Below are positions 8,935-27,847 of a stretch of DNA of 64,000 nucleotides, piece after piece (within the stretch, counting starts at the first letter, position 1; each line of letters opens with the position of its first letter). Source of the DNA: an uncultured Eubacteriales bacterium (GTDB lineage: Bacteria; Bacillota; Clostridia; Lachnospirales; Lachnospiraceae); contig CASFAQ010000016.1 in the NCBI GenBank assembly GCA_949292725.1, positions 738-64,737 on the forward strand. Reading direction: 5' to 3'. The position numbers and the translations under genes were made by a program. Under the pieces are notes generated by a model that ran no database searches, was not told the DNA's origin, and worked only from the letters and a program-made list of their open reading frames with translations.

Positions 8935-11900
8935 TTACTGAAAGATTCTCCTTGCAAAATTATATAATCCATTCTTCCAAGGTCCCCACCAATGACCTCC
9001 GGGCCACGTGTAATATATGTGATCAAAGCCATTATTCTTCAATGTTGTGCTGTACTGAAGCGGGCTGTCTCCTACTGTTGTGTCACCCTCACCTGCAACG
9101 ATTAGAAATAATGTGTTGTCACGATATTTTGCCGGCACGGTAAGTGTCTCAGTGGTAAGAAGCCCTGATTCGCGCCAGTATGGAAGTACTCCGACTGCAG
9201 GGCAGAATGCACCAGTATATGCAAAATCATCAACCATTGTTACTCCGGTATAGAGGGCGTTACGTCCTCCCATTGACAATCCTGCTATCGCACGATTATT
9301 ACGTCCTGTTTTCACCGAGAAGTTCTGTTCTATATACGGAATAAGGCTTGTCTTTAATTCATCAGCCGTTCTGTCATACATCTTAAACTGTTCTAACGTC
9401 AGATATCCCGGACTTGCTTCATCAGCCTTGCGTACGCACTGATTTGGAAGAACCATTATCATCTCCTTGCACGTTCCCGCAGCAATCATATTGCTTATAA
9501 TCTCATTCGGCTTACCATCAAGCCATTCGCTCTCACTTCCTCCTATACCATGAAGAAGGTATAGAACAGGATACTTTTTATTCGCATTATATCCTGGAGG
9601 AAGTATCACCTTTGCATTTCTGTTCATCCCTGCAATATACGAATAATATGAGACATCGATTACCGTTCCATATGTCACTCCGCTTTTAACCTCATCAAAG
9701 CCGGAAGGCGTATCATAGTTATTATCGATAAATGATACCTTATCACTGTCTGCATCATCTTCTCCTTCCTTCATTTCCATATCATCCATGAAGAATGTCA
9801 CAAGGTCATTTGATGAAGGATTGCTGTTATATGCGGTTTCAACAAATACCTGTACGCTTGACATATCTGCATCCTCAGGCACCTTATATGTTCCGCTTAT
9901 AAGGCTCCACTGCCCTCTTACAGCTTCTCCCGATGCAATGACAGTTACTTTCCCTCCGGTAACAAGGCATATGTTAAATACATGAGACGCATCATTACCT
10001 TCGCTGTAATTGATATATGTCTTTACGGTATAACTCTCACCAGCTTCAACCTTTCCGGTTATATCCTGTACAGGTCCCGAAGGGGTCTGTTTTCTGTTGC
10101 TTACCTTAAGCGAATGATTGCCGTTTCGTTTGGTAACCCAGCCTAACGACAGTTCTGCACCTGCATGTGAATCCCAGGAAGACGTTCCGTCCTCAATATC
10201 TCCGTTAATGATTATAGGTACATCCTCTTTCATGGATACATCATCTACATAGAATGTCATAAGGTCATTATATGTATCAGGTTTCTCTGTCCAAGGCGTT
10301 TCAAAGAACACTCTTACATCGGACACATCAGCATTCTCAGGTATGGTATATGTTCCGGTTATAATACCCCAGTTTCCTTTTTGGGTAGTTACCGAACCCA
10401 TGTTAGCGTATGTATTATCACCATATCTTATCGTCATAAAGAACTTCTTCTGATCCGGATACTGTGAGCTGTTCGCATCGCTTGCATCCTGCTTGTACTG
10501 AACCTTTGCAGATACCTTATACGTACGTCCTGCCTCAACTTTCCCGGTTATATCCTGATAGCATCCCGAGCTTGTGTAAGCGCGCTTTGAAACTTTCATG
10601 GAAAGTGCTCCCTTTGCCACTGTATAGTAGCCCAGAGACAATGTTGCTCCATTCATCGACTCCCATGAATCATATCCGTCCTCAAAGTCCGGATTATCGA
10701 TCAGGTTAGAGCCTCTTATAATCTCTACAGGCATAGCTGTTGGAGCCGGAGTTGGCGTCGCTGTAGGCGCCGGAGTTGGCGTAGGCTTTGGTGTCGGAGT
10801 CGCTGTAGGCTTTGGCGTCGCTGTAGGCGCCGGCGCTATCTCTTTCATTGAAATATCATCAGCAAAATATGTCATAAGATCATTTGCTGCCACCGGCGAC
10901 GGCGTCCACGGAGTCTCTATAAACACCTTCACGGAAGAAAGATTTGCATCTGCCGGTATGGTATAGGTTCCCGTAAGGTCTGCCCAGCTTCCTTTCTTAG
11001 CATACGCAGACGCTATATTTCTAATGGTTCCGTCACCATATACTATCGACATAAGGAACTGCTTTTCATCAGGGTAATTGGCGCTTAAAGCCTCATTTCC
11101 ATCATATCTGTACTGTATCTTTCCACTTATCTGATATGTTGCGCCATTCTCCACTTTTCCCGTAATATCCTGCTGCGCTCCGGACGACGTATGGTCGCGG
11201 TCATAGACTTTAAGGCCGGTAACTCCTCCCGTCTTCGTAACCCAGGCCAATCCGAGTTTGGAGTTGCCCCCTGCTTCCCAGTTTTCCACACCATTCTCAA
11301 AATCACCGTTAGCAATGATATTATCCGTTGCCGTCTGAACTGATTTTGGCGGAACAAGCTGAATACAATCGAGATAAAGTTCTCCCGCAGCTGCTCTGTT
11401 TGCCTTTAACTCGATAGTATTGCTTCCCTGATTGAGTACGATATTCTTCTCAACAGTACTCCATTTGTTATATCCTCCGGTTGCTTTAAATGACAATGTA
11501 TCAGTCTTTACTCCATTTATATAGAGGTCGACGCTATCCATTACCTCAACCCATGCCGTCATATATCTTATAATCAGCGTATGCTCGCCTTTGACTATTG
11601 CATTTACGGTTTCCTTAACAGCCGCAGACGGATTCTTTCCAAAATCAAGATAACCCTGTCCCCAGAAATTGATTATCTCGGGACTGAGACCTGCCGATGC
11701 ACCGTTTCTTATATTCTTTTCAATATTTTTATATCCGAAATTCTCTGCCTCATACTGTCTTGTACCCGTATATTCAGTTGGAAGCGCCGGTGCCGAAACA
11801 TTAGCGGTCTTATAATATGTAAGTCTGTCAGCAGCCTGTCCTTTACAATTGCTGATATTTATATCTATAGGACCGTTATGCCTTACCGTAAGAGTATATT

Positions 11901-13650
11901 CTCCGTTGCTGTAGCTTTCATATACCTGACTTGCCTGCTGACTACCTGCAAGTCCCCTGTCCTTGTATGTAAATGATGGTTTCGTGCTGCATCCCGATAT
12001 CTTGATGATATCCGTCTTAAGCGACGTATCCAGCTCATTATCATAATTATTGAGATATACTGCAAGAGATTCCCTGTGTTCTGTAATTATTCCACCTGAA
12101 TACCTGCTTCCAAGAGTGACATTCATCCTGCTGCATGTATTGTATTTGAACGGAATGGAACCGGATACGGACCTGTTACTCTTATAGGAATTATATACTG
12201 CCCATGTGTTTTCATTTCTGCGGGCATATATATCTCCGGTGTATTCCTGCGGAAACAGCGAGTTAAATTCATTTACTTTAGCCCATGTGCTGCCCCATCT
12301 TTCGGAGTACTGCGACGCTTTTACCTGTACGTCGAATGACTTCGCTACGTCATCCCGCAGCCCATATACCACCGGAATCGTAGGATATCTTCCGGTCTTT
12401 TTGTAATATGTGGTATTATCCGCATAATTTTTACCATCTTCCATATTATAAAGTCCGTCAAAGAGCGTCTGAGGAGTGCTGTATTTGTTATCATTGGTGC
12501 CCCACGAAACATCCTGAATAACAACCAGTTTTGTATTATCTATGACCTCCTGCCTTGTCGGAATCCTTATCGTTCCATCTATAACCTTTCTGAATACGTC
12601 TATGTATGCATTCCAGCACTGATTCGTAAACTTCCAGTTATTCTCCCTGTAGCCATCGGAAGATACCGTATCCTTATCCCCATTTATACAATCAACCCAT
12701 ATGAGCTCGGGTCCGTCTATGACAGTTGCTCCACTAATAAGGAATCGCTCCAGATGTGCTGCAATAGAGGATGAGAGCGTATAATTTCTGTCAGTTCCGC
12801 TATTTCCGTTCTCATCCGTCCATCCTGTATCGTCATAACGAATTCCATACTGTCCGCAGTAGCCCGAAAGATATGCACCCAGAGTCAGACTCTCCCTGTC
12901 ATACTGATAACCCATTGTGGTATGTTTTTCTTCAATTATGTAATTATCAGAGTATTTTTCACATGCCGCCTTCCATTCCGGAACCCTCTTTAGCATAGCT
13001 ATAGGATTGATATTGGCACACCACTGGTTACCGTTCCAGCTCATGGACACATACCCTCCGTATCTGTTACTGAGCTCTAAAAGTTTTGCAAGATGTCTGT
13101 ATCTCGCCTCGTCACTTGGCGCCACACCATCGGGATTGGTTGCATCAAATCCCCAAAACTGTTCCGCATAGTGGAATCCTATAAAATTAGGATATTCTCT
13201 GTACAATTCCCCATAAATTGCACTCTCATAATCCACACTTGCGTCATAGTCAGGGAAACGCGCTATACCGCCGCTTGCAACCTGAACCATACACCATACC
13301 CTGTTCTCCGCACAGGTCTTTAACCATGATCTGGTACATTCCTCAGCGTCATGTACAATATTCCATTTGCCATTATTAAAGCTTACGGAAAGAGTGATAA
13401 GAAAAACTACATATGGTCTTACGTCACTCGGGACCATATCAATGACCTTCTGAGGATCCGGATAACACCACGGATCAATATGTACCATCCACACAGGCTG
13501 CTCGGGTGATATCGAACGACGAAAATACGTGTCTCCACCCATTTCCTGTGCCTTTACAACGCTCTGGTCGGTCGCATTCATGCCCATACCCGGAGATATA
13601 ACGGATATAAGCATAGCGACCACCAGAACAAACCCCAATAATCTTCTCAC
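8935..13650 (-). CDS. Secreted multidomain xylan-active enzyme: N-terminal catalytic region, CBM6/35-like module, 3 x CBM_4_9 (CBM22-type) modules, C-terminal CE1 feruloyl esterase
   Basis: 1571 aa with a GTG start after GAGGAG and a signal peptide. YEAENFG...LDCIQL is CBM6/35-like. Three NGDFE/NPDFE/NGDIE...DD(I/V/M)(S/E)MKE repeats. The C-terminus matches the C. thermocellum XynZ-type esterase (YLLHGIGGSESEW, RAIAGLSMGG, GGHWWGPWKNGLYNF). Confidence 0.9.
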   Translation of the reverse strand: MRRLLGFVLVVAMLISVISPGMGMNATDQSVVKAQEMGGDTYFRRSISPEQPVWMVHIDPWCYPDPQKVIDMVPSDVRPYVVFLITLSVSFNNGKWNIVHDAEECTRSWLKTCAENRVWCMVQVASGGIARFPDYDASVDYESAIYGELYREYPNFIGFHYAEQFWGFDATNPDGVAPSDEARYRHLAKLLELSNRYGGYVSMSWNGNQWCANINPIAMLKRVPEWKAACEKYSDNYIIEEKHTTMGYQYDRESLTLGAYLSGYCGQYGIRYDDTGWTDENGNSGTDRNYTLSSSIAAHLERFLISGATVIDGPELIWVDCINGDKDTVSSDGYRENNWKFTNQCWNAYIDVFRKVIDGTIRIPTRQEVIDNTKLVVIQDVSWGTNDNKYSTPQTLFDGLYNMEDGKNYADNTTYYKKTGRYPTIPVVYGLRDDVAKSFDVQVKASQYSERWGSTWAKVNEFNSLFPQEYTGDIYARRNENTWAVYNSYKSNRSVSGSIPFKYNTCSRMNVTLGSRYSGGIITEHRESLAVYLNNYDNELDTSLKTDIIKISGCSTKPSFTYKDRGLAGSQQASQVYESYSNGEYTLTVRHNGPIDINISNCKGQAADRLTYYKTANVSAPALPTEYTGTRQYEAENFGYKNIEKNIRNGASAGLSPEIINFWGQGYLDFGKNPSAAVKETVNAIVKGEHTLIIRYMTAWVEVMDSVDLYINGVKTDTLSFKATGGYNKWSTVEKNIVLNQGSNTIELKANRAAAGELYLDCIQLVPPKSVQTATDNIIANGDFENGVENWEAGGNSKLGLAWVTKTGGVTGLKVYDRDHTSSGAQQDITGKVENGATYQISGKIQYRYDGNEALSANYPDEKQFLMSIVYGDGTIRNIASAYAKKGSWADLTGTYTIPADANLSSVKVFIETPWTPSPVAANDLMTYFADDISMKEIAPAPTATPKPTATPTPKPTPTPAPTATPTPAPTAMPVEIIRGSNLIDNPDFEDGYDSWESMNGATLSLGYYTVAKGALSMKVSKRAYTSSGCYQDITGKVEAGRTYKVSAKVQYKQDASDANSSQYPDQKKFFMTIRYGDNTYANMGSVTTQKGNWGIITGTYTIPENADVSDVRVFFETPWTEKPDTYNDLMTFYVDDVSMKEDVPIIINGDIEDGTSSWDSHAGAELSLGWVTKRNGNHSLKVSNRKQTPSGPVQDITGKVEAGESYTVKTYINYSEGNDASHVFNICLVTGGKVTVIASGEAVRGQWSLISGTYKVPEDADMSSVQVFVETAYNSNPSSNDLVTFFMDDMEMKEGEDDADSDKVSFIDNNYDTPSGFDEVKSGVTYGTVIDVSYYSYIAGMNRNAKVILPPGYNANKKYPVLYLLHGIGGSESEWLDGKPNEIISNMIAAGTCKEMIMVLPNQCVRKADEASPGYLTLEQFKMYDRTADELKTSLIPYIEQNFSVKTGRNNRAIAGLSMGGRNALYTGVTMVDDFAYTGAFCPAVGVLPYWRESGLLTTETLTVPAKYRDNTLFLIVAGEGDTTVGDSPLQYSTTLKNNGFDHIYYTWPGGHWWGPWKNGLYNFARRIFQ
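10733..10837 (-). repeat. Pro/Thr-rich linker (APAPTATPKPTATPTPKPTPTPAPTATPTPAPTA) with short DNA repeats
   Basis: GCGCCTACAGCGACGCCAA occurs twice. It lies between CBM22-type repeats 1 and 2. Confidence 0.8.
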
Positions 13651-22088: not shown

Positions 22089-22160
22089 GCGCGAGTGGCT
22101 CAGTGGTGGAGCACTTCCTTGCCAAGGAAGGGGTCGCGGGTTCGATCCCCGTCTCGCGCT
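22089..22160 (+). tRNA. tRNA-Gly (anticodon GCC)
   Basis: 72-nt cloverleaf. Acceptor GCGCGAG/CTCGCGC, D-stem GCTC/GAGC, anticodon stem CTTCC/GGAAG with loop TTGCCAA, T-loop TTCGATC. No encoded CCA. Confidence 0.93.
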
Positions 22161-22184
22161 CTGAATTATAAACTTTTAAATGAT

Positions 22185-22231: not shown

Positions 22232-23500
22232 TCATACAGAGCGAACACATCGCACCGCTATTCTTTCACGTCCGCCATATGTACAGGTGAACAGCGTAAG
22301 CGCCCAGTCACCGTTAAGCATTCTCTCGCAATCGTATCCGTCTATCACTTCTGTCTCATGCACGAGATAATTGTGAGTAACGCCCGTTACATCCGTAAAC
22401 TTTATAACATCCCCTGCTTCAAGATGCCGTATTCCGTTGAATACACTTCTCATATTATGCCCTGCAATTATCATATTATCCTGTCCGCAGGTTCCGGAGT
22501 ACAGACATGGGCCGTTACCAAGCGCTTTATCGGTGCACTCACTCTGAACCGGAAGTTTTACACCAGTCTTTGGTATATCTATAACTCCAATGTAGTCTGT
22601 ACCATCTACATCAAGGCTCTGCATCATCGAAATATCCACAGGACTATCATAACCGCCTGCCGTAAGCATCGCCTGCTCATAATTATCGAGCGCTGTAACG
22701 TTATGTGCACGAACCTTATTATCCTGTATATTATTGTATACAAACAGACTTATCGCACATCCGATGCATATTATGCCTCCTGACCACAGAAACCTTCTTA
22801 TGTTCTTGTTTATCAGCTTTACAAATCCGGCAATGATAAATACCATGCCTGAAACAGCCAGTATGGACACCGGCCACCAAAGCTGTCCTGTCTGCGGAAG
22901 TTTTTCTCTGTCATTATCCTTACTGTTATTAAGCCATGCCGCCCCGTCGTCATAAAAAGCCGCATATTTGCCCATCTCATCCTCAACAAGCTCCGGTTTT
23001 ACAGCCTTAAGCTTCGCATCAATTATGATCTTTCTCGTTATATCATCATTATTTTTTACCGGAAGCTCAAAGATTACAGGCTGTGCTATATATCCAACAT
23101 TGTCGTATATGTATCCCGATGGTGCGACAAGGTACAATCCGTCCGAAAGATTTTTTATGACCGCATTACCCTTTGAATTGGTCTTCTTGTCAGTCTGCGT
23201 ACTTATCTTATTCTTTAATATATAAGACGAAAGCTGTTCAGCTATATCCTGCCATCCGGAAACATCCCTGTATTCATTAAGGTCCGCAGAAGAATCTTTG
23301 AATGAGGATGTCTTTTCAAAAGAACCTTCCTTTGTCAGAGTGGCAACCTTATACAGCTTAACACTCATACCCTCTATATTTACATCATCATAATTATACT
23401 GTACAGTAACCTCATTATGCGCATTATCCGCGGCTTGCACAGGTACTCCAAACATGCCGATAATCAACGACATTGCAATAAACAAAATGTATCCGGCCAT
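22232..23500 (-). CDS. Fusion protein: secreted Cna-B/pilin-like domain with an LPQTG sorting signal joined in frame to a sortase catalytic domain
   Basis: ATG at 23500 follows AAAGGGGA. Signal peptide, then LPQTG (22886..22900), a TM segment and KLINKNIRR. A second TM follows directly, then sortase motifs (IIAGHN, TLFTCT, downstream R). No stop or start at the junction (~22790). Confidence 0.85.
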   Translation of the reverse strand: MAGYILFIAMSLIIGMFGVPVQAADNAHNEVTVQYNYDDVNIEGMSVKLYKVATLTKEGSFEKTSSFKDSSADLNEYRDVSGWQDIAEQLSSYILKNKISTQTDKKTNSKGNAVIKNLSDGLYLVAPSGYIYDNVGYIAQPVIFELPVKNNDDITRKIIIDAKLKAVKPELVEDEMGKYAAFYDDGAAWLNNSKDNDREKLPQTGQLWWPVSILAVSGMVFIIAGFVKLINKNIRRFLWSGGIICIGCAISLFVYNNIQDNKVRAHNVTALDNYEQAMLTAGGYDSPVDISMMQSLDVDGTDYIGVIDIPKTGVKLPVQSECTDKALGNGPCLYSGTCGQDNMIIAGHNMRSVFNGIRHLEAGDVIKFTDVTGVTHNYLVHETEVIDGYDCERMLNGDWALTLFTCTYGGRERIAVRCVRSV

Positions 23501-23517
23501 TTCATTAATCCCCTTTC

Positions 23518-26055
23518 TTATTGATAGAAACAATATCTGTCTTCCTCCTCCCTTTTGGCCCGATACATTGCGCTTTCCGCCTGCTCGAGCAGCTCATATG
23601 CGCTTGATTCTCCCGTAGTGTCTATCGATACGCCTATGCTCGCACACACGGACGTATTATCTTCTATACGAATATCCTGAAGCGCACTTACAAGTTTTTT
23701 TACCCTTAGTTCTACATTATCCCTGTTTAGAACTCCTGATAGGAATATGACGAACTCGTCTCCTCCGAATCTCCCAAGCATGTCCTCTTTACGGAACACA
23801 TTTTTGATGATATCGGCAACGGACTTTAGCACCTCATTGGCATTTTCATGTCCCATCACATCATTAATATACCTGAAATTATCTATATCGACAAGTAAAA
23901 GCGCTCCTCCGCCTGCCTCAGAGTTACGTTTGTTAAGGGCATATATGGTCGAATCGTGATTAAGCATACCGGTGAGAGCATCATTGGCCGCATGTTTCTT
24001 AAGATCAGCCGTCATCTTCATATCCTTATCTATACTGTCGGAGCGACCTACAATACGGTATACCTTTCCGCTGTAATCCGCCACGCTTTTGTAATATGAT
24101 CTGTACCATTTATACTCGCCATCCGATGAAAATCTGGCCTTGTAATCCATGGAACCACTTCTTGGATTCTTAATTGCATCACCGAATACTTTCCTGTGTA
24201 TGTCCATGTCATAATCATCAAGCCAGCTGCATTTTCCCTCTCCAAGGAATTTTTCTGCCGTTACAGTCCTTATATTACCTGCGCTCTCACATAATTCTAC
24301 TGTTATGATATCCCTGTCAGGATCATAGTCATAAGTTATCGTTCCCGGAATCTTGGCAAGTGTCTCGTATTTTTTCTGAACCCACTGCTGCGTAAGCTCT
24401 TCACTCATGTGAAGCGTCTCAGTTATATCCTCAAATACGGCAAATATTATATGTCCCTCATCAGAAGTATTAACATGTCTCATACTTATATGAATGTATT
24501 TGCCACAGGAATCAACCTTCATATCATAACTGTATGTTTTTCTTGATATGGTTTCTTCAACCGAATCTATGACTTCTGCCCGCATATCCGCATCCACATT
24601 GTTTAGAATATTATAATGCAGCATATCTGTAATTTTCCTGTCAGGATCAAGGGCTCCAATACATGAATTAAATATAAACGAAGCATTACTCTTGGAATCC
24701 AGAAGTTCGGTAAGGTTGATTCTGTTATCCGCCTCTCTGTGACGTGTTGTCACATTGTCCGGGCCACTCATTATAAGCTTCTCAAATGAATCCGCATCCA
24801 TTGGCATGGCAAAATAATATCCCTGCATAAATCTGCATCCCATATTCTTAAGGAGTCTCGCCTGTTCTTCCGTCTCCACTCCTTCTGCGATTACATCCAT
24901 GTCAAGTGCATGCGCCATACGTATGACCGAGCTGATTATATTGCCTGCTCTGGCATTATTATCAGTTTTTGATAGAAATTTCAGGTCCATCTTAAGCGTA
25001 TCCACCGTCATATCCTTAAGCATGTTTAAGGACGAAAATCCACTTCCAAAATCATCCATCTCGACCTTGAACCCGAATTGTCTGAGCTTTGATACAATCT
25101 TAATAAGTTCGTCAACATCCCTGATATATGCACCCTCAGTAATCTCAAGTCGTAACATATCTTTAGTAAGTCCGTAATCATCGACCAGTTTTTTAAAGTA
25201 TTCACATACATCTATACTGAGTACATCATTTCTTGAGATATTTACCGAAAGCGCTACGGATATATTTTTACCTGATTTCTTCCATTTCTGCATATATCCG
25301 CAAGCCTTATCCCATATGTAATGATCCAGAAGAAATATCTGTCCCGAATCCTCCAGAATCGGAATAAATTCATCAGGCGATATGTTGCCAAGCTCGGGAT
25401 TATGCCATCGTGCAAGTACCTCTGCTCCAATTATCTCGCCGGTCGTATAATCGTACTGTGGCTGAAACCACGGAGCTATCTCTCCATTGGCCAAGGCATC
25501 TCCTACCCCATGCCTTATCCTTGAAGTACGGGCTTCCCGCTTCCACAACTTCTCATCGCAGAATACGATATTGCTTCCCGAAATCTCCTTAGCCTTTTTC
25601 TGTGCAATATTGGCATAATCAAGCAGGTGATTGACATCAGTGACCTTATACTCCTTTGGATCAAACACATACACTCCGGCACACATCTCAACCACATACT
25701 GCTTCTCAGGAGTATACAGATATTTTTCAATACTGCCTGACACATAACGAAACGCCTCACATGTCATCTCTTCTGAATCAAATGGTGCAAAAACAACCAC
25801 ATTATCGCGCGAGATACGGGCGACAATTCCCTTATCGCCTATTACTTCAGCTATAACCTCTGCCCAGTGACGAAGAAGGGCATCCCCTTTTTCATAGCCA
25901 AAGAAATCATTGACAAATTTGAACTGCTTAATGTCCAGATAACACACCTGATACACTTCATTCAGAGCATCGGACAGAATATCTTTAACCTTTATCTTGA
26001 AACCCTCATAGTTAAAGCATCCCATCAGCTCATCATAATAATTAATCTTATTCAA
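23518..26055 (-). CDS. c-di-GMP turnover protein: degenerate GGDEF, EAL, PAS-like region, intact GGDEF
   Basis: 845 aa. EAL-domain motifs are EVLARW, EITEG, DDFGSGFSSL, AEGVETEEQ, QGYYF. The C-terminus has GRFGGDEFVIF. The N-terminal GGDEF site is degenerate (RISRDNV). TTG start after GGGAG. Confidence 0.9.
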   Translation of the reverse strand: MNKINYYDELMGCFNYEGFKIKVKDILSDALNEVYQVCYLDIKQFKFVNDFFGYEKGDALLRHWAEVIAEVIGDKGIVARISRDNVVVFAPFDSEEMTCEAFRYVSGSIEKYLYTPEKQYVVEMCAGVYVFDPKEYKVTDVNHLLDYANIAQKKAKEISGSNIVFCDEKLWKREARTSRIRHGVGDALANGEIAPWFQPQYDYTTGEIIGAEVLARWHNPELGNISPDEFIPILEDSGQIFLLDHYIWDKACGYMQKWKKSGKNISVALSVNISRNDVLSIDVCEYFKKLVDDYGLTKDMLRLEITEGAYIRDVDELIKIVSKLRQFGFKVEMDDFGSGFSSLNMLKDMTVDTLKMDLKFLSKTDNNARAGNIISSVIRMAHALDMDVIAEGVETEEQARLLKNMGCRFMQGYYFAMPMDADSFEKLIMSGPDNVTTRHREADNRINLTELLDSKSNASFIFNSCIGALDPDRKITDMLHYNILNNVDADMRAEVIDSVEETISRKTYSYDMKVDSCGKYIHISMRHVNTSDEGHIIFAVFEDITETLHMSEELTQQWVQKKYETLAKIPGTITYDYDPDRDIITVELCESAGNIRTVTAEKFLGEGKCSWLDDYDMDIHRKVFGDAIKNPRSGSMDYKARFSSDGEYKWYRSYYKSVADYSGKVYRIVGRSDSIDKDMKMTADLKKHAANDALTGMLNHDSTIYALNKRNSEAGGGALLLVDIDNFRYINDVMGHENANEVLKSVADIIKNVFRKEDMLGRFGGDEFVIFLSGVLNRDNVELRVKKLVSALQDIRIEDNTSVCASIGVSIDTTGESSAYELLEQAESAMYRAKREEEDRYCFYQ

Positions 26056-27847
26056 TATGCGCTCCCTCTACAATCAGTTTTGTATAAACCACCGCATGCT
26101 CCGGTGAAACATCGAGCTCCTCGGTCATATCAAGCACCGGCATGGAGTCCGTATCAAAATGAACTCTTCTAATTCCACTGCTCCTTACGCCTTCCTCGCC
26201 CGGTCTTGCATGATATGTATTCCATATATCTCCATACTCATCCACGACATAAGCATTATGTCCTGTTCCAAATTCTCCCGGCACGCTTCTTGAGGTAAGA
26301 ATAGGATAATTATTCTTCTCCCAGTTTTCCCTGACAAGAAGATCCTTTCCCTTTTCAATCGTGAGCATGCTTACCACATATGATGTATCCACTGCAGCGC
26401 TTGAAAATGTAAGCACTATCCTGTCTTCAAATATGAGCGCAAATGGTCCCTCATCGACAAATGTATGATTATTGGCCCAGCCATAATCCGGTTTTGACAA
26501 CACTACAGGCTCAGTAATAAGCTTCCACGGTTCATTTCTGTCAATCTTTGCGATATAAAGCCACGCTCCCAGATCCTTAGGCAGAAACTGCCTTTGCGAC
26601 CATACTGCATAATACTCATCCTGCCATTTAAAACAGGTCATATCAAGCGTAATCTCCCGACCCATCTCGCACAGATCCGTGCCGTCCCATTTCACAACTC
26701 TCTTTGGTGCGGACCAGTCATCCTTATTGGAAGGATTACCACCGTCACAAAGCTCCATAACATGCGACTCTTCACAGAAGAATTCTCCCGGAGTAAGAGC
26801 AAGGAATATATAAAGCTTTCCATCTATCTCATGAAACTCCGGCGCCCACAAAAGTCCCTTTGCATAATCATACATATCCGAATCAAGTATAAGTTTTTCT
26901 TCAGCGCTTACAAGCTCAGGGATGCTGTCAGCCTCCCTCACATACAATGAATGATTATTATCGGCATCATTGGTAGCTATAAAATAATATTTTCCGTTCC
27001 AAAATCCTATACACGGGTCAGCCCTGTTATATGCTACCGGAAACTCATAATGCTCCTTATGTATAACGCCTTTTATATAGTATTCTCCGCTCTTATCAAA
27101 GTCTATACCGCAGACATCCCAGTCGACTCTTTTTAATGCGCTTGTGCCATCGCTGTATAACGCCCTAATGCGGATGTCCTCAAGCTCCTCTTTGGACGAA
27201 ACTCTGATAGTGTCGCTCACTTCGTTACCTATATGATACGCCACAGTAAGTTTTTTTACAAGTCTGTCTGCAATTTCATCAGACACACGAATGACAGCAC
27301 AATCCCTCGCGCCTTCAATATCTGTTTCGACACAACCGGACGACGGCTCATCACATGACGATATCCCATCAACCTGCACTCCCCCGGTCATATCCTTTAG
27401 TATACTTTTATACCACTTACCGCCGGCACTCCACATAAGCCTGTAGTCGTCACAGGCTTCGTCATATTCACAGTATATCCTTTCAACTTCTGTATCTGAT
27501 ACATGTATCATTCCAATTTCTTTATACTTTATAAGGTCTTTGGTCTCCCAAAGCAGGATACCGCCCACATCCTCAGTATCCGCACAGCCCTCGCCGTCAG
27601 TACGTACGGCAAGAACATAGAATCCGTCCTTTGTCTTCTTCTCTGTTATAAAAGGATTCCTAAGACACTTGGGATTGAGGGAACCATCCTCATTCTCTGT
27701 AGCCAAAGCGAACAGAACACCCGAATTGTGGTTTAGCGCAGTAAATCCGTCTCCCTCCCTGATGGCAAGATGCATACTGTATGCTATTCTCGCATCATAA
27801 TGAACAGAATCAATCGGCTTCCTTGTGTAATATAATATTTCTTTCAT
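26048..27847 (-). CDS. Glycoside hydrolase family 43 protein with a ~270-aa N-terminal extension; no signal peptide
   Basis: 599 aa. RADPCIGFWNGKYYFIAT, WAPEFHEIDGKLYIF, DEGPFAL and GHNAYV fit a five-bladed-propeller GH43 pattern. Confidence 0.85.
   Translation of the reverse strand: MKEILYYTRKPIDSVHYDARIAYSMHLAIREGDGFTALNHNSGVLFALATENEDGSLNPKCLRNPFITEKKTKDGFYVLAVRTDGEGCADTEDVGGILLWETKDLIKYKEIGMIHVSDTEVERIYCEYDEACDDYRLMWSAGGKWYKSILKDMTGGVQVDGISSCDEPSSGCVETDIEGARDCAVIRVSDEIADRLVKKLTVAYHIGNEVSDTIRVSSKEELEDIRIRALYSDGTSALKRVDWDVCGIDFDKSGEYYIKGVIHKEHYEFPVAYNRADPCIGFWNGKYYFIATNDADNNHSLYVREADSIPELVSAEEKLILDSDMYDYAKGLLWAPEFHEIDGKLYIFLALTPGEFFCEESHVMELCDGGNPSNKDDWSAPKRVVKWDGTDLCEMGREITLDMTCFKWQDEYYAVWSQRQFLPKDLGAWLYIAKIDRNEPWKLITEPVVLSKPDYGWANNHTFVDEGPFALIFEDRIVLTFSSAAVDTSYVVSMLTIEKGKDLLVRENWEKNNYPILTSRSVPGEFGTGHNAYVVDEYGDIWNTYHARPGEEGVRSSGIRRVHFDTDSMPVLDMTEELDVSPEHAVVYTKLIVEGAHIE

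Follow-up and report, generated by a model that had tools for sequence, protein, structure and literature searches.

The basal pilin SpaB of L. rhamnosus GG is a single-domain protein with a pilin-motif lysine (FPKN) at its C-terminal end and an LPQTG sorting motif, and SpaA and SpaC of the same strain carry LPHTG (PMC8244301). The housekeeping sortase carries SpaB and subsequently anchors the pilus (PMC8244301; general model, PMC8088525). The Clostridium perfringens sortase CpSrtD prefers LPQTGS in vitro and shares an operon with the LPQTGS protein CPE_RS01465 (PMC4498605). Sortases and LPXTG sites have also been engineered into one self-cleaving polypeptide, as in the BISOP method (PMC2901362). 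In full-text literature searches, only such engineered self-cleaving sortase tags were found, and no natural pilin-sortase or substrate-sortase fusion was described. We describe here a gene that joins a pilin-like protein and a sortase in a single chain. It lies in a 64,000-nucleotide stretch of an uncultured Eubacteriales bacterium (contig CASFAQ010000016.1, positions 738 to 64,737; hereafter the window).

The gene probably encodes a basal-pilin-like subunit fused to a dedicated, class-D-like anchoring sortase, the orphan copy in the window either anchoring itself or serving a pilus elsewhere; we give this reading a probability of about 0.6. None of the parts is new in itself; what appears undescribed in the literature searched is that enzyme and substrate are covalently coupled, that this coupling recurs, and that an anchoring sortase is dedicated and tied to a pilin.

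Both halves lie in one open reading frame (ORF) with no stop codon between the LPQTG motif and the sortase, as the initial annotation had proposed from the letters alone, and the positions that it gave for LPQTG and for the catalytic His and Cys are correct on reading the DNA. The longest ORF, counted from a TTG codon, spans 22232..23533 on the reverse strand and encodes 433 amino acids (aa). The 422-aa protein counted from ATG (P0001) is present identically in public collections, and the 433-aa gene call (P0123) is likewise public. The features of the gene and its surroundings are listed in Table 1, where conservation refers to an alignment of 86 homologues whose columns average 20% identity. 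Structures were predicted with AlphaFold2 (AF2) and scored by the predicted local distance difference test (pLDDT) and the predicted template modelling score (pTM). TM1 and TM2 denote the two transmembrane segments (TMs) between the LPQTG motif and the sortase.

Table 1. Coordinates of the fusion gene, its parts, and neighbouring features in the window
Feature	Coordinates	Strand	Basis or remark
Fused ORF, 422 aa from ATG at 23500	22232..23500	-	Stop codon 22232..22234; ORF listing and DNA reading
Signal peptide, residues 1-23 (MAGYILFIAMSLIIGMFGVPVQA / AD)	23432..23500	-	Hydrophobic segment 1-24; Ala23 at least 90% conserved in 86 homologues; putative cleavage site
Pilin D1-type Ig-like domain, residues 24-168, with conserved G121-x-Y123-L124 strand	22997..23431	-	AF2 model, Foldseek
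Lys163, pilin-motif-like lysine (local IIIDAK), presumed acceptor nucleophile	23012..23014	-	K in 83 of 86 aligned homologues
Flexible linker, residues 169-200	22901..22996	-	pLDDT <50 for 183-196
LPQTG sorting motif, residues 201-205, then Q-L-W-W-P	22886..22900	-	Conserved in 86 homologues
TM1, residues 207-227, equivalent to the hydrophobic stretch of a standard cell-wall sorting signal	22820..22882	-	Hydropathy; AF2 helix 209-225; aligns with C-terminal TM of split-locus pilins
Cytoplasmic basic loop KLINKNIRR, residues 228-236	22793..22819	-	Merged pilin basic tail and sortase basic N-terminus
TM2, residues 237-255, N-terminal anchor of a stand-alone sortase, ending in conserved Y-N motif	22736..22792	-	Hydropathy, AF2, split-locus comparison
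Helical stalk and flexible linker, residues 256-295	22616..22735	-	AF2 helix runs to 281; pLDDT 69 for 281-290
Sortase catalytic domain, residues 296-422	22235..22615	-	Pfam PF04203, Foldseek
His348 (IIAGHN)	22457..22459	-	Invariant in 86 homologues
Cys406 (TLFTC)	22283..22285	-	Invariant in 86 homologues
Arg413	22262..22264	-	Invariant in 86 homologues
GGDEF-EAL-GGDEF gene, 845 aa, cyclic di-GMP turnover	23518..26055	-	Stop 18 nucleotides (nt) before fusion ATG; context, not an established part of the system
tRNA-Gly (GCC)	22089..22161	+	Opposite strand, 71 nt past fusion stop
Glycoside hydrolase family 43 (GH43) enzyme, beyond the GGDEF/EAL gene	26048..27847	-	
1571-aa glycoside hydrolase with GH98, three CBM_4_9, CBM_6 and an esterase domain	8935..13650	-	

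The start codon of the gene is ambiguous. A strong GGAGGAGG lies 10 nt upstream of the alternative TTG at 23533 (23531..23553, reverse strand), which overlaps the end of the upstream gene; starting there would add MFLSIRKGINE and give the signal peptide a basic n-region absent from the ATG form. The ATG at 23500 is preceded by a weaker AAAGGGG. The mature protein would be the same from either start.

Both halves of the protein are as first claimed: a pilin-type domain with a complete sorting signal, followed by a sortase with its catalytic residues. For the N-terminal domain, the proposed pilin or SpaA-type identity finds its support in structure, the sequence models all staying below threshold (SpaA, E = 0.006; SpaH/EbpB major pilin, E = 4e-6). 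Modelled separately (pLDDT 89.4, pTM 0.83), the domain matches in Foldseek the pilin D1 domains of C. perfringens CppA (5xcc/5xcb, TMq 0.58), LrpA, SpaA, SpaD, and T6, as well as the basal pilins EbpB, SpaE, C. diphtheriae SpaB, and GBS52. In pilins, the linking lysine is borne by D1 (PMC8244301). Lys163 sits at the end of the predicted D1-type domain, in a position with the consensus Y-[DN]-V-x-V-x-P-K in which the proline has become alanine in the window clade; with it, the protein has a conserved, presumed linking lysine in a pilin motif, as expected of basal-type pilins. The lysine first put forward for this role, Lys149 of ELPVKNN, was rejected as unconserved, being present in 8 of the 86 homologues, against 83 for Lys163. 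The linker that follows the domain (residues 169-200) is rich in prolines in most homologues, with spaced prolines in the consensus, and is not so in the window protein.

The sorting signal has the canonical parts in the classical order, namely LPQTG, the hydrophobic LWWPVSILAVSGMVFIIAGFV, and the basic KLINKNIRR. Unlike the classical C-terminal signal it is internal, with 186 residues (TM2, stalk, and sortase) after the basic stretch. Homologues conserve x-L-W-W-P-[VI] directly after LPQTG (residues 206-211, 22868..22885; W209 in 70 of 86, P210 in 67 of 86). Fused and split substrates both have this extension, which the LPxTGG pilins of the same operons lack and which may help determine specificity at the membrane interface. 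Hydropathy delimits, besides the signal peptide, hydrophobic segments at 207-231 and 237-258 flanking KLINKNIRR. The predicted topology, with both domains outside and a positively charged loop inside, obeys the positive-inside rule as originally suggested, and loop charges agree: across 82 homologues, the TM1-TM2 loops have a median length of 8 aa and average 4.2 Lys and Arg versus 0.74 Asp and Glu. Because the basic tail of the pilin and the basic N-terminus of the sortase form one cytoplasmic loop, fusion leaves the topology of both parts unchanged.

A few relatives have a different layout. P0029, P0042, P0097 (Clostridium vitabionis, 1.1-Mb contig), and P0118 (104 member sequences) show a single hydrophobic segment between LPQTG and the sortase, which starts like TM1 (LWWPVP) and ends like TM2 (YNxxDxxRA), as if a deletion had merged the two. 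P0042 (625 aa) is moreover an apparent triple fusion of a class C sortase, a pilin with LPQTG, and a second sortase, with an awkward topology; as a singleton from one contig, it could be a frameshift or gene-call artefact.

The C-terminal domain belongs to the sortase superfamily by its PF04203 profile, its catalytic His, Cys, and Arg, and its predicted eight-stranded beta-barrel fold. The Pfam model matches residues 307-419 (E = 4.5e-18) with 65.6 bits, well above the cut-off of 26.6, and Arg417 is conserved in at least 90% of the homologues. The full-length AF2 model (pLDDT 90.1, pTM 0.57) consists of a beta-rich region (29-167), a disordered segment (183-196), helices at 209-225 (TM1) and 232-281 (TM2 and stalk), and a sortase barrel (296-420) with pLDDT >90. 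Searched against the PDB with Foldseek, this model retrieved sortases only, with E values down to 1.7e-9. The best target-normalised score (TMt), 0.72, was shared by 4d70 (C. perfringens SrtD) and 7f87 (L. rhamnosus GG housekeeping SrtA), and class C structures aligned with a large root mean square deviation. The closest solved chains by sequence were 4d70 (E = 1.3e-6) and then 2kw8 (B. anthracis class D).

Among the NCBIfam class models, class C scores highest (NF033745, 45.8 bits), far below its cut-off of 160; the class D models NF033746 (30.8 versus 165) and NF058671 (37.9 versus 140) and the model TIGR01076 (35.7 versus 39.35) also stay below theirs. NCBIfam holds no model specific to a pilin-sortase fusion. 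Class C sortases have a lid whose motif consists of Asp-Pro and then Trp, Phe, or Tyr. No such motif was seen between TM2 and strand 1 of the window protein, and with only 5 residues beyond Arg417 the chain lacks a hydrophobic segment at its C-terminus; a C-terminal TM is present in the class C sortases of homologous operons. Class C identity was rejected on these three grounds of score, lid, and C-terminal TM. The best PDB sequence matches are class D (4d70, 2kw8), although they are weak and housekeeping SrtA structures fit equally well. The best reading is that the sortase half is of the anchoring type and class-D-like.

The fused layout is widely conserved. A protein search returned 1447 relatives, and about 105 of the best 120, which were inspected for layout, keep the order of signal peptide, LPQTG, two TMs, A[AG]HN, and TLFTC in chains of 400-660 aa. 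Pfam annotates these relatives with Cna_B, SpaA, or GramPos_pilinD1 (PF05738, PF17802, PF16555), then Sortase; their public names are only "sortase" or "sortase domain-containing protein". In the 86-homologue alignment P202, T204, G205, H348, C406, and R413 are invariant, L201 is found in 82 sequences, and Q203 is found in 85. A second search, of representatives clustered at 50% identity, gave 5757 proteins at E <= 1e-3. The best 150 clusters include at least 74 fusions and 66 stand-alone sortases of about 190-260 aa, and the residue after [LI]PQTG is never Gly in the 74 fused representatives.

An error or a recent stop loss might have joined two ordinary genes, and as the split and fused forms differ by one stop or a short overlap, a single error could mimic a fusion. 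The 1302-nt fusion gene is, however, identical in an independent European Nucleotide Archive assembly (L008), with 1 mismatch across 12.4 kb. Orthologues at 62-70% identity are fused likewise, as are dozens of divergent clusters, and all catalytic and motif residues are kept. Since the gene recurs unchanged in a second assembly and its layout is conserved in divergent homologues, an artefact or a fresh pseudogene is practically excluded; we consider this reading extremely improbable and effectively refuted. A missed gene boundary or frameshift, against which the initial annotation had argued, was rejected on the same observations together with the in-frame junction.

Split forms of the same pair show what the junction joins. 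At least 596 relatives turned up when species-representative genomes were scanned, their sources including Lachnospiraceae, Oscillospiraceae, Butyrivibrio hungatei, B. proteoclasticus, Acetobacterium paludosum, and Clostridium transplantifaecale. Eighty loci were taken, their ORFs called, and the loci classified. The pair is split in 51 loci and fused in 15; 8 contain the sortase only, 4 lie at a contig edge, and 2 are unclear. The fusion is a recurrent one among gut Clostridia. In split loci, the pilin ends with LPQTG-x-LWWPVP, a TM, a basic tail, and a stop, and a sortase gene of 195-230 aa comes next, starting at -11, -8, -4, 0, or +3 nt or, in Butyrivibrio loci, up to about 75 nt downstream. 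The split sortase begins with MKxKR, a TM, and YNxWD..RA. The fused junction equals the split junction minus the stop. The expectation that the two are normally adjacent genes is borne out, and because the same pilin and sortase abut or overlap in 51 of 80 loci and fusion only drops the stop, the two halves appear to be a cognate enzyme-substrate pair.

A GGAGG-N6-ATG at 22767..22781 is out of frame and opens only a short ORF, as first noted. It was considered as a vestigial sortase start and rejected: it lies inside TM2, and split-locus sortases start before their TM. We treat it as a coincidence.

On a neighbour-joining tree of the catalytic domains (about 135 residues), fused and split states are interspersed. 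Parsimony gives 5 changes, with a range of 3-7 over 60 bootstrap replicates, of which only the minimum of at least 3 changes is trustworthy. By this comparison of sequences, the fusion seems to have arisen or reverted at least three times.

The fused gene or split pair usually closes a pilus operon. Around P0105, P0019, and P0015, the operon opens with a small coiled-coil ORF and an S26 signal-peptidase homologue, continues with a large SpaA/Cna_B tip adhesin, a GramPos_pilinBB/SpaA shaft pilin (about 510-565 aa), and a class C sortase (257-284 aa, C-terminal TM), and ends with the fusion; most of the 80 loci share this order. A class C sortase lies in the fetched flank of 57 of the 66 classified loci and of 14 of the 15 fused ones. 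The sorting motif of the tip and shaft pilins is LPxTGG, in the forms LPKTGG, LPDTGG, LPNTGG, LPSTGG, and LPETGG; in the fusion or split pilin it is LPQTG, and the next residue may be Q, L, M, T, or another, but never G. Because the gene or gene pair comes last in an operon that already has a class C sortase and LPxTGG pilins, a role as basal pilin plus anchoring sortase is indicated.

The first genes of these operons also recur. The coiled-coil ORF of about 110-200 aa and the S26 peptidase are found at the operon start in L001 (4476..5450), L003 (467..1518), L004 (860..1925), and many of L009-L088, and may resemble the SipA/LepA-type pilus assembly factors of streptococci.

The same sortase type also partners larger surface proteins. 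It lies directly downstream of LPQTG-LWWP adhesins of 1440 and 1986 aa (L026, 5685..10594; L068, 957..7482) and is fused to very large non-pilin adhesins in P0150 (835 aa) and P0216 (1553 aa), with no class C sortase nearby. These adhesin-partnered copies without a class C sortase suggest a general habit of anchoring the protein encoded just upstream.

The copy in the window stands apart from this family pattern. Neither another LPXTG protein, another sortase, nor a pilus operon was found in the 64-kb window, and the flanks of L006, L008, and L009 contain no class C sortase or other LPXTG protein. The closest relatives, P0002 (70% identity, L006) and a gene of the uncultured Lachnospiraceae MGYG-HGUT-04210 (69%, L009), share its gene order and are likewise fused and orphan. 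At 50% clustering, this clade stands alone, the next cluster being at 36% identity; it keeps LPQTG, Lys163, and the catalytic residues.

The orphan state bears on the proposal, made in the initial annotation, of a single-gene module that may polymerise. Here, the sortase would join Thr204 to Lys163 of the next subunit, building a homopolymeric fibre with wall attachment last. The retention of Lys163 in the orphan clade (P0002-P0004), the lack of a class C sortase or other LPXTG protein in the window and in the three flanks, and the D1 type of the domain, which is the lysine-bearing domain of shaft pilins, are all consistent with this. The sortase, though, has neither lid nor C-terminal TM, and its nearest enzymes are class D and housekeeping sortases; a pilus operon may also lie elsewhere in the genome. 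Because 14 of the 15 fused loci contain a separate class C sortase and shaft pilin, the family as a whole needs no polymerising activity here. The single-gene module therefore fails family-wide, where fused loci end pilus operons, and keeps some footing in the orphan status of the small window clade; we hold a self-polymerising pilus to be an unlikely, if credible, alternative.

For the preferred reading, a basal-pilin-like subunit with its own anchoring sortase, the following course can be drawn. The precursor would be exported by Sec and lose its signal peptide, and the hairpin of TM1, basic loop, and TM2 is predicted to place the pilin and sortase domains both outside the membrane. Cys406, with His348 and Arg, would then cut LPQT|G just above TM1, in its own chain or in a neighbouring copy, forming a thioacyl intermediate with Thr204. 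A peptidoglycan precursor would resolve the intermediate, linking the pilin domain to the wall and leaving G-TM1-loop-TM2-sortase in the membrane. In operon-end homologues, Lys163 would, by analogy, take over the shaft polymer from the class C sortase, so that the fusion would serve as pilus base with its own anchoring enzyme, the counterpart within a single chain of a basal pilin and its housekeeping sortase. Fusion would ensure that the terminating subunit loads on the anchoring enzyme, not the polymerase, at a 1:1 ratio. The window copy, with no pilus genes nearby, may act as a stand-alone self-anchoring protein or serve a pilus elsewhere in the genome.

That the fused sortase cuts its own LPQTG signal is most likely, judged from sequence comparison. 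The halves might instead not be an enzyme-substrate pair: LPQTG could be cut by a housekeeping sortase or stay uncut, the N-terminal domain acting as a tethered ectodomain or regulatory pro-domain. Processing is something we infer, the sortase could turn over other LPQTG proteins, and the single-TM variants suggest a geometry not always fit for self-processing. Yet LPQTG is near-invariant over 86 divergent fusions, the same LPQTG-x-LWWP signal is carried by the gene directly upstream in 51 split loci, the window has no other LPXTG substrate, and the closest characterised enzyme prefers LPQTGS (PMC4498605). We regard unpaired halves as quite improbable, more so than self-polymerisation.

Several points weigh against the basal-pilin and anchoring-sortase reading. 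As all NCBIfam class-specific scores fall below their cut-offs, neither the class nor the nucleophile preference of the sortase is fixed. The one-TM variants, with a single pass, would put the sortase in the cytoplasm, which does not fit the proposed topology. Cleavage, its action in cis or in trans, and the acceptor are what we infer for the window protein. How the domains are arranged is uncertain in the full-length model (pTM 0.57), and the high pLDDT found for residues 201-210 is suggestive at most of LPQTG docking at Cys406. With no pilus genes nearby, a role as pilus base is not supported for the window gene, and given the conserved Lys163 of its clade, self-polymerisation could equally take place.

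The GGDEF/EAL gene also precedes the fusion in L006 and L009, and no terminator-like site lies between the two genes in the window; this conserved neighbourhood makes co-transcription possible, and cyclic di-GMP signalling is possibly linked to the fusion surface protein. Downstream of the fusion lies, besides the tRNA-Gly, a glutamate-cysteine ligase homologue. The G+C content is 41%, and the glycoside hydrolases (Table 1) give the organism the look of a Clostridia member that degrades plant or host glycans.

In the usual model, a shared housekeeping sortase carries the basal pilin and ends assembly, and the evidence here points to another arrangement, in which, across hundreds of Clostridial species (among them Lachnospiraceae, Oscillospiraceae, Butyrivibrio, and Acetobacterium), the last pilin has its own small sortase and the pair has been fused several times; such fusion is strong comparative ("Rosetta stone") evidence on which enzyme acts on which substrate. 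Because public annotation reads only "sortase", surveys of the surface proteins of gut commensals miss the substrate half. The strongest proposal would make the fusion a single-turnover anchoring machine that cleaves its own LPQTG in cis, with the orphan clade also building a Lys163 homopolymer and attaching it to the wall from one gene. This is speculative, and we would not expect it to hold in full; if true, it would be the smallest known sortase-dependent pilus system. A weaker version would state that the pili of Clostridia rely on a dedicated anchoring sortase coupled to the pilin, not on the housekeeping enzyme, and that the pair has been fused repeatedly. The fusion is useful as a clean test system for cis action, with enzyme and substrate fixed at 1:1, and display constructs that cleave or anchor themselves could be modelled on this natural example.

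Compared with known systems, the fusion differs from BISOP-type tags, which are soluble artificial constructs built on S. aureus SrtA, with another domain order and purpose (PMC2901362). Class C sortases share its fold, catalytic triad, and association with pilus operons; they differ by their lid, their C-terminal anchor, and their encoding as a separate gene in the same operons. Like CpSrtD (4d70), the closest solved structure by sequence, its enzyme is a compact sortase without a lid that is encoded with an LPQTG-type substrate. Unlike the fusion, CpSrtD is a separate protein, with about 24% identity, and is discussed for sporulation, not pili. The basal pilins that work with a housekeeping sortase (GG SpaB/SrtA; C. 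diphtheriae SpaB/SrtF) likewise have a pilus operon with a class C sortase and, in GG, an LPQTG distinct from the tip and shaft motif. The domain of the fusion is of the D1 type and that of GG SpaB is of the CnaB type, and the window copy has no pilus operon nearby. In GG, SrtA is a genome-wide housekeeping enzyme, whereas the anchoring sortase described here is dedicated and is encoded beside or inside the pilin chain.

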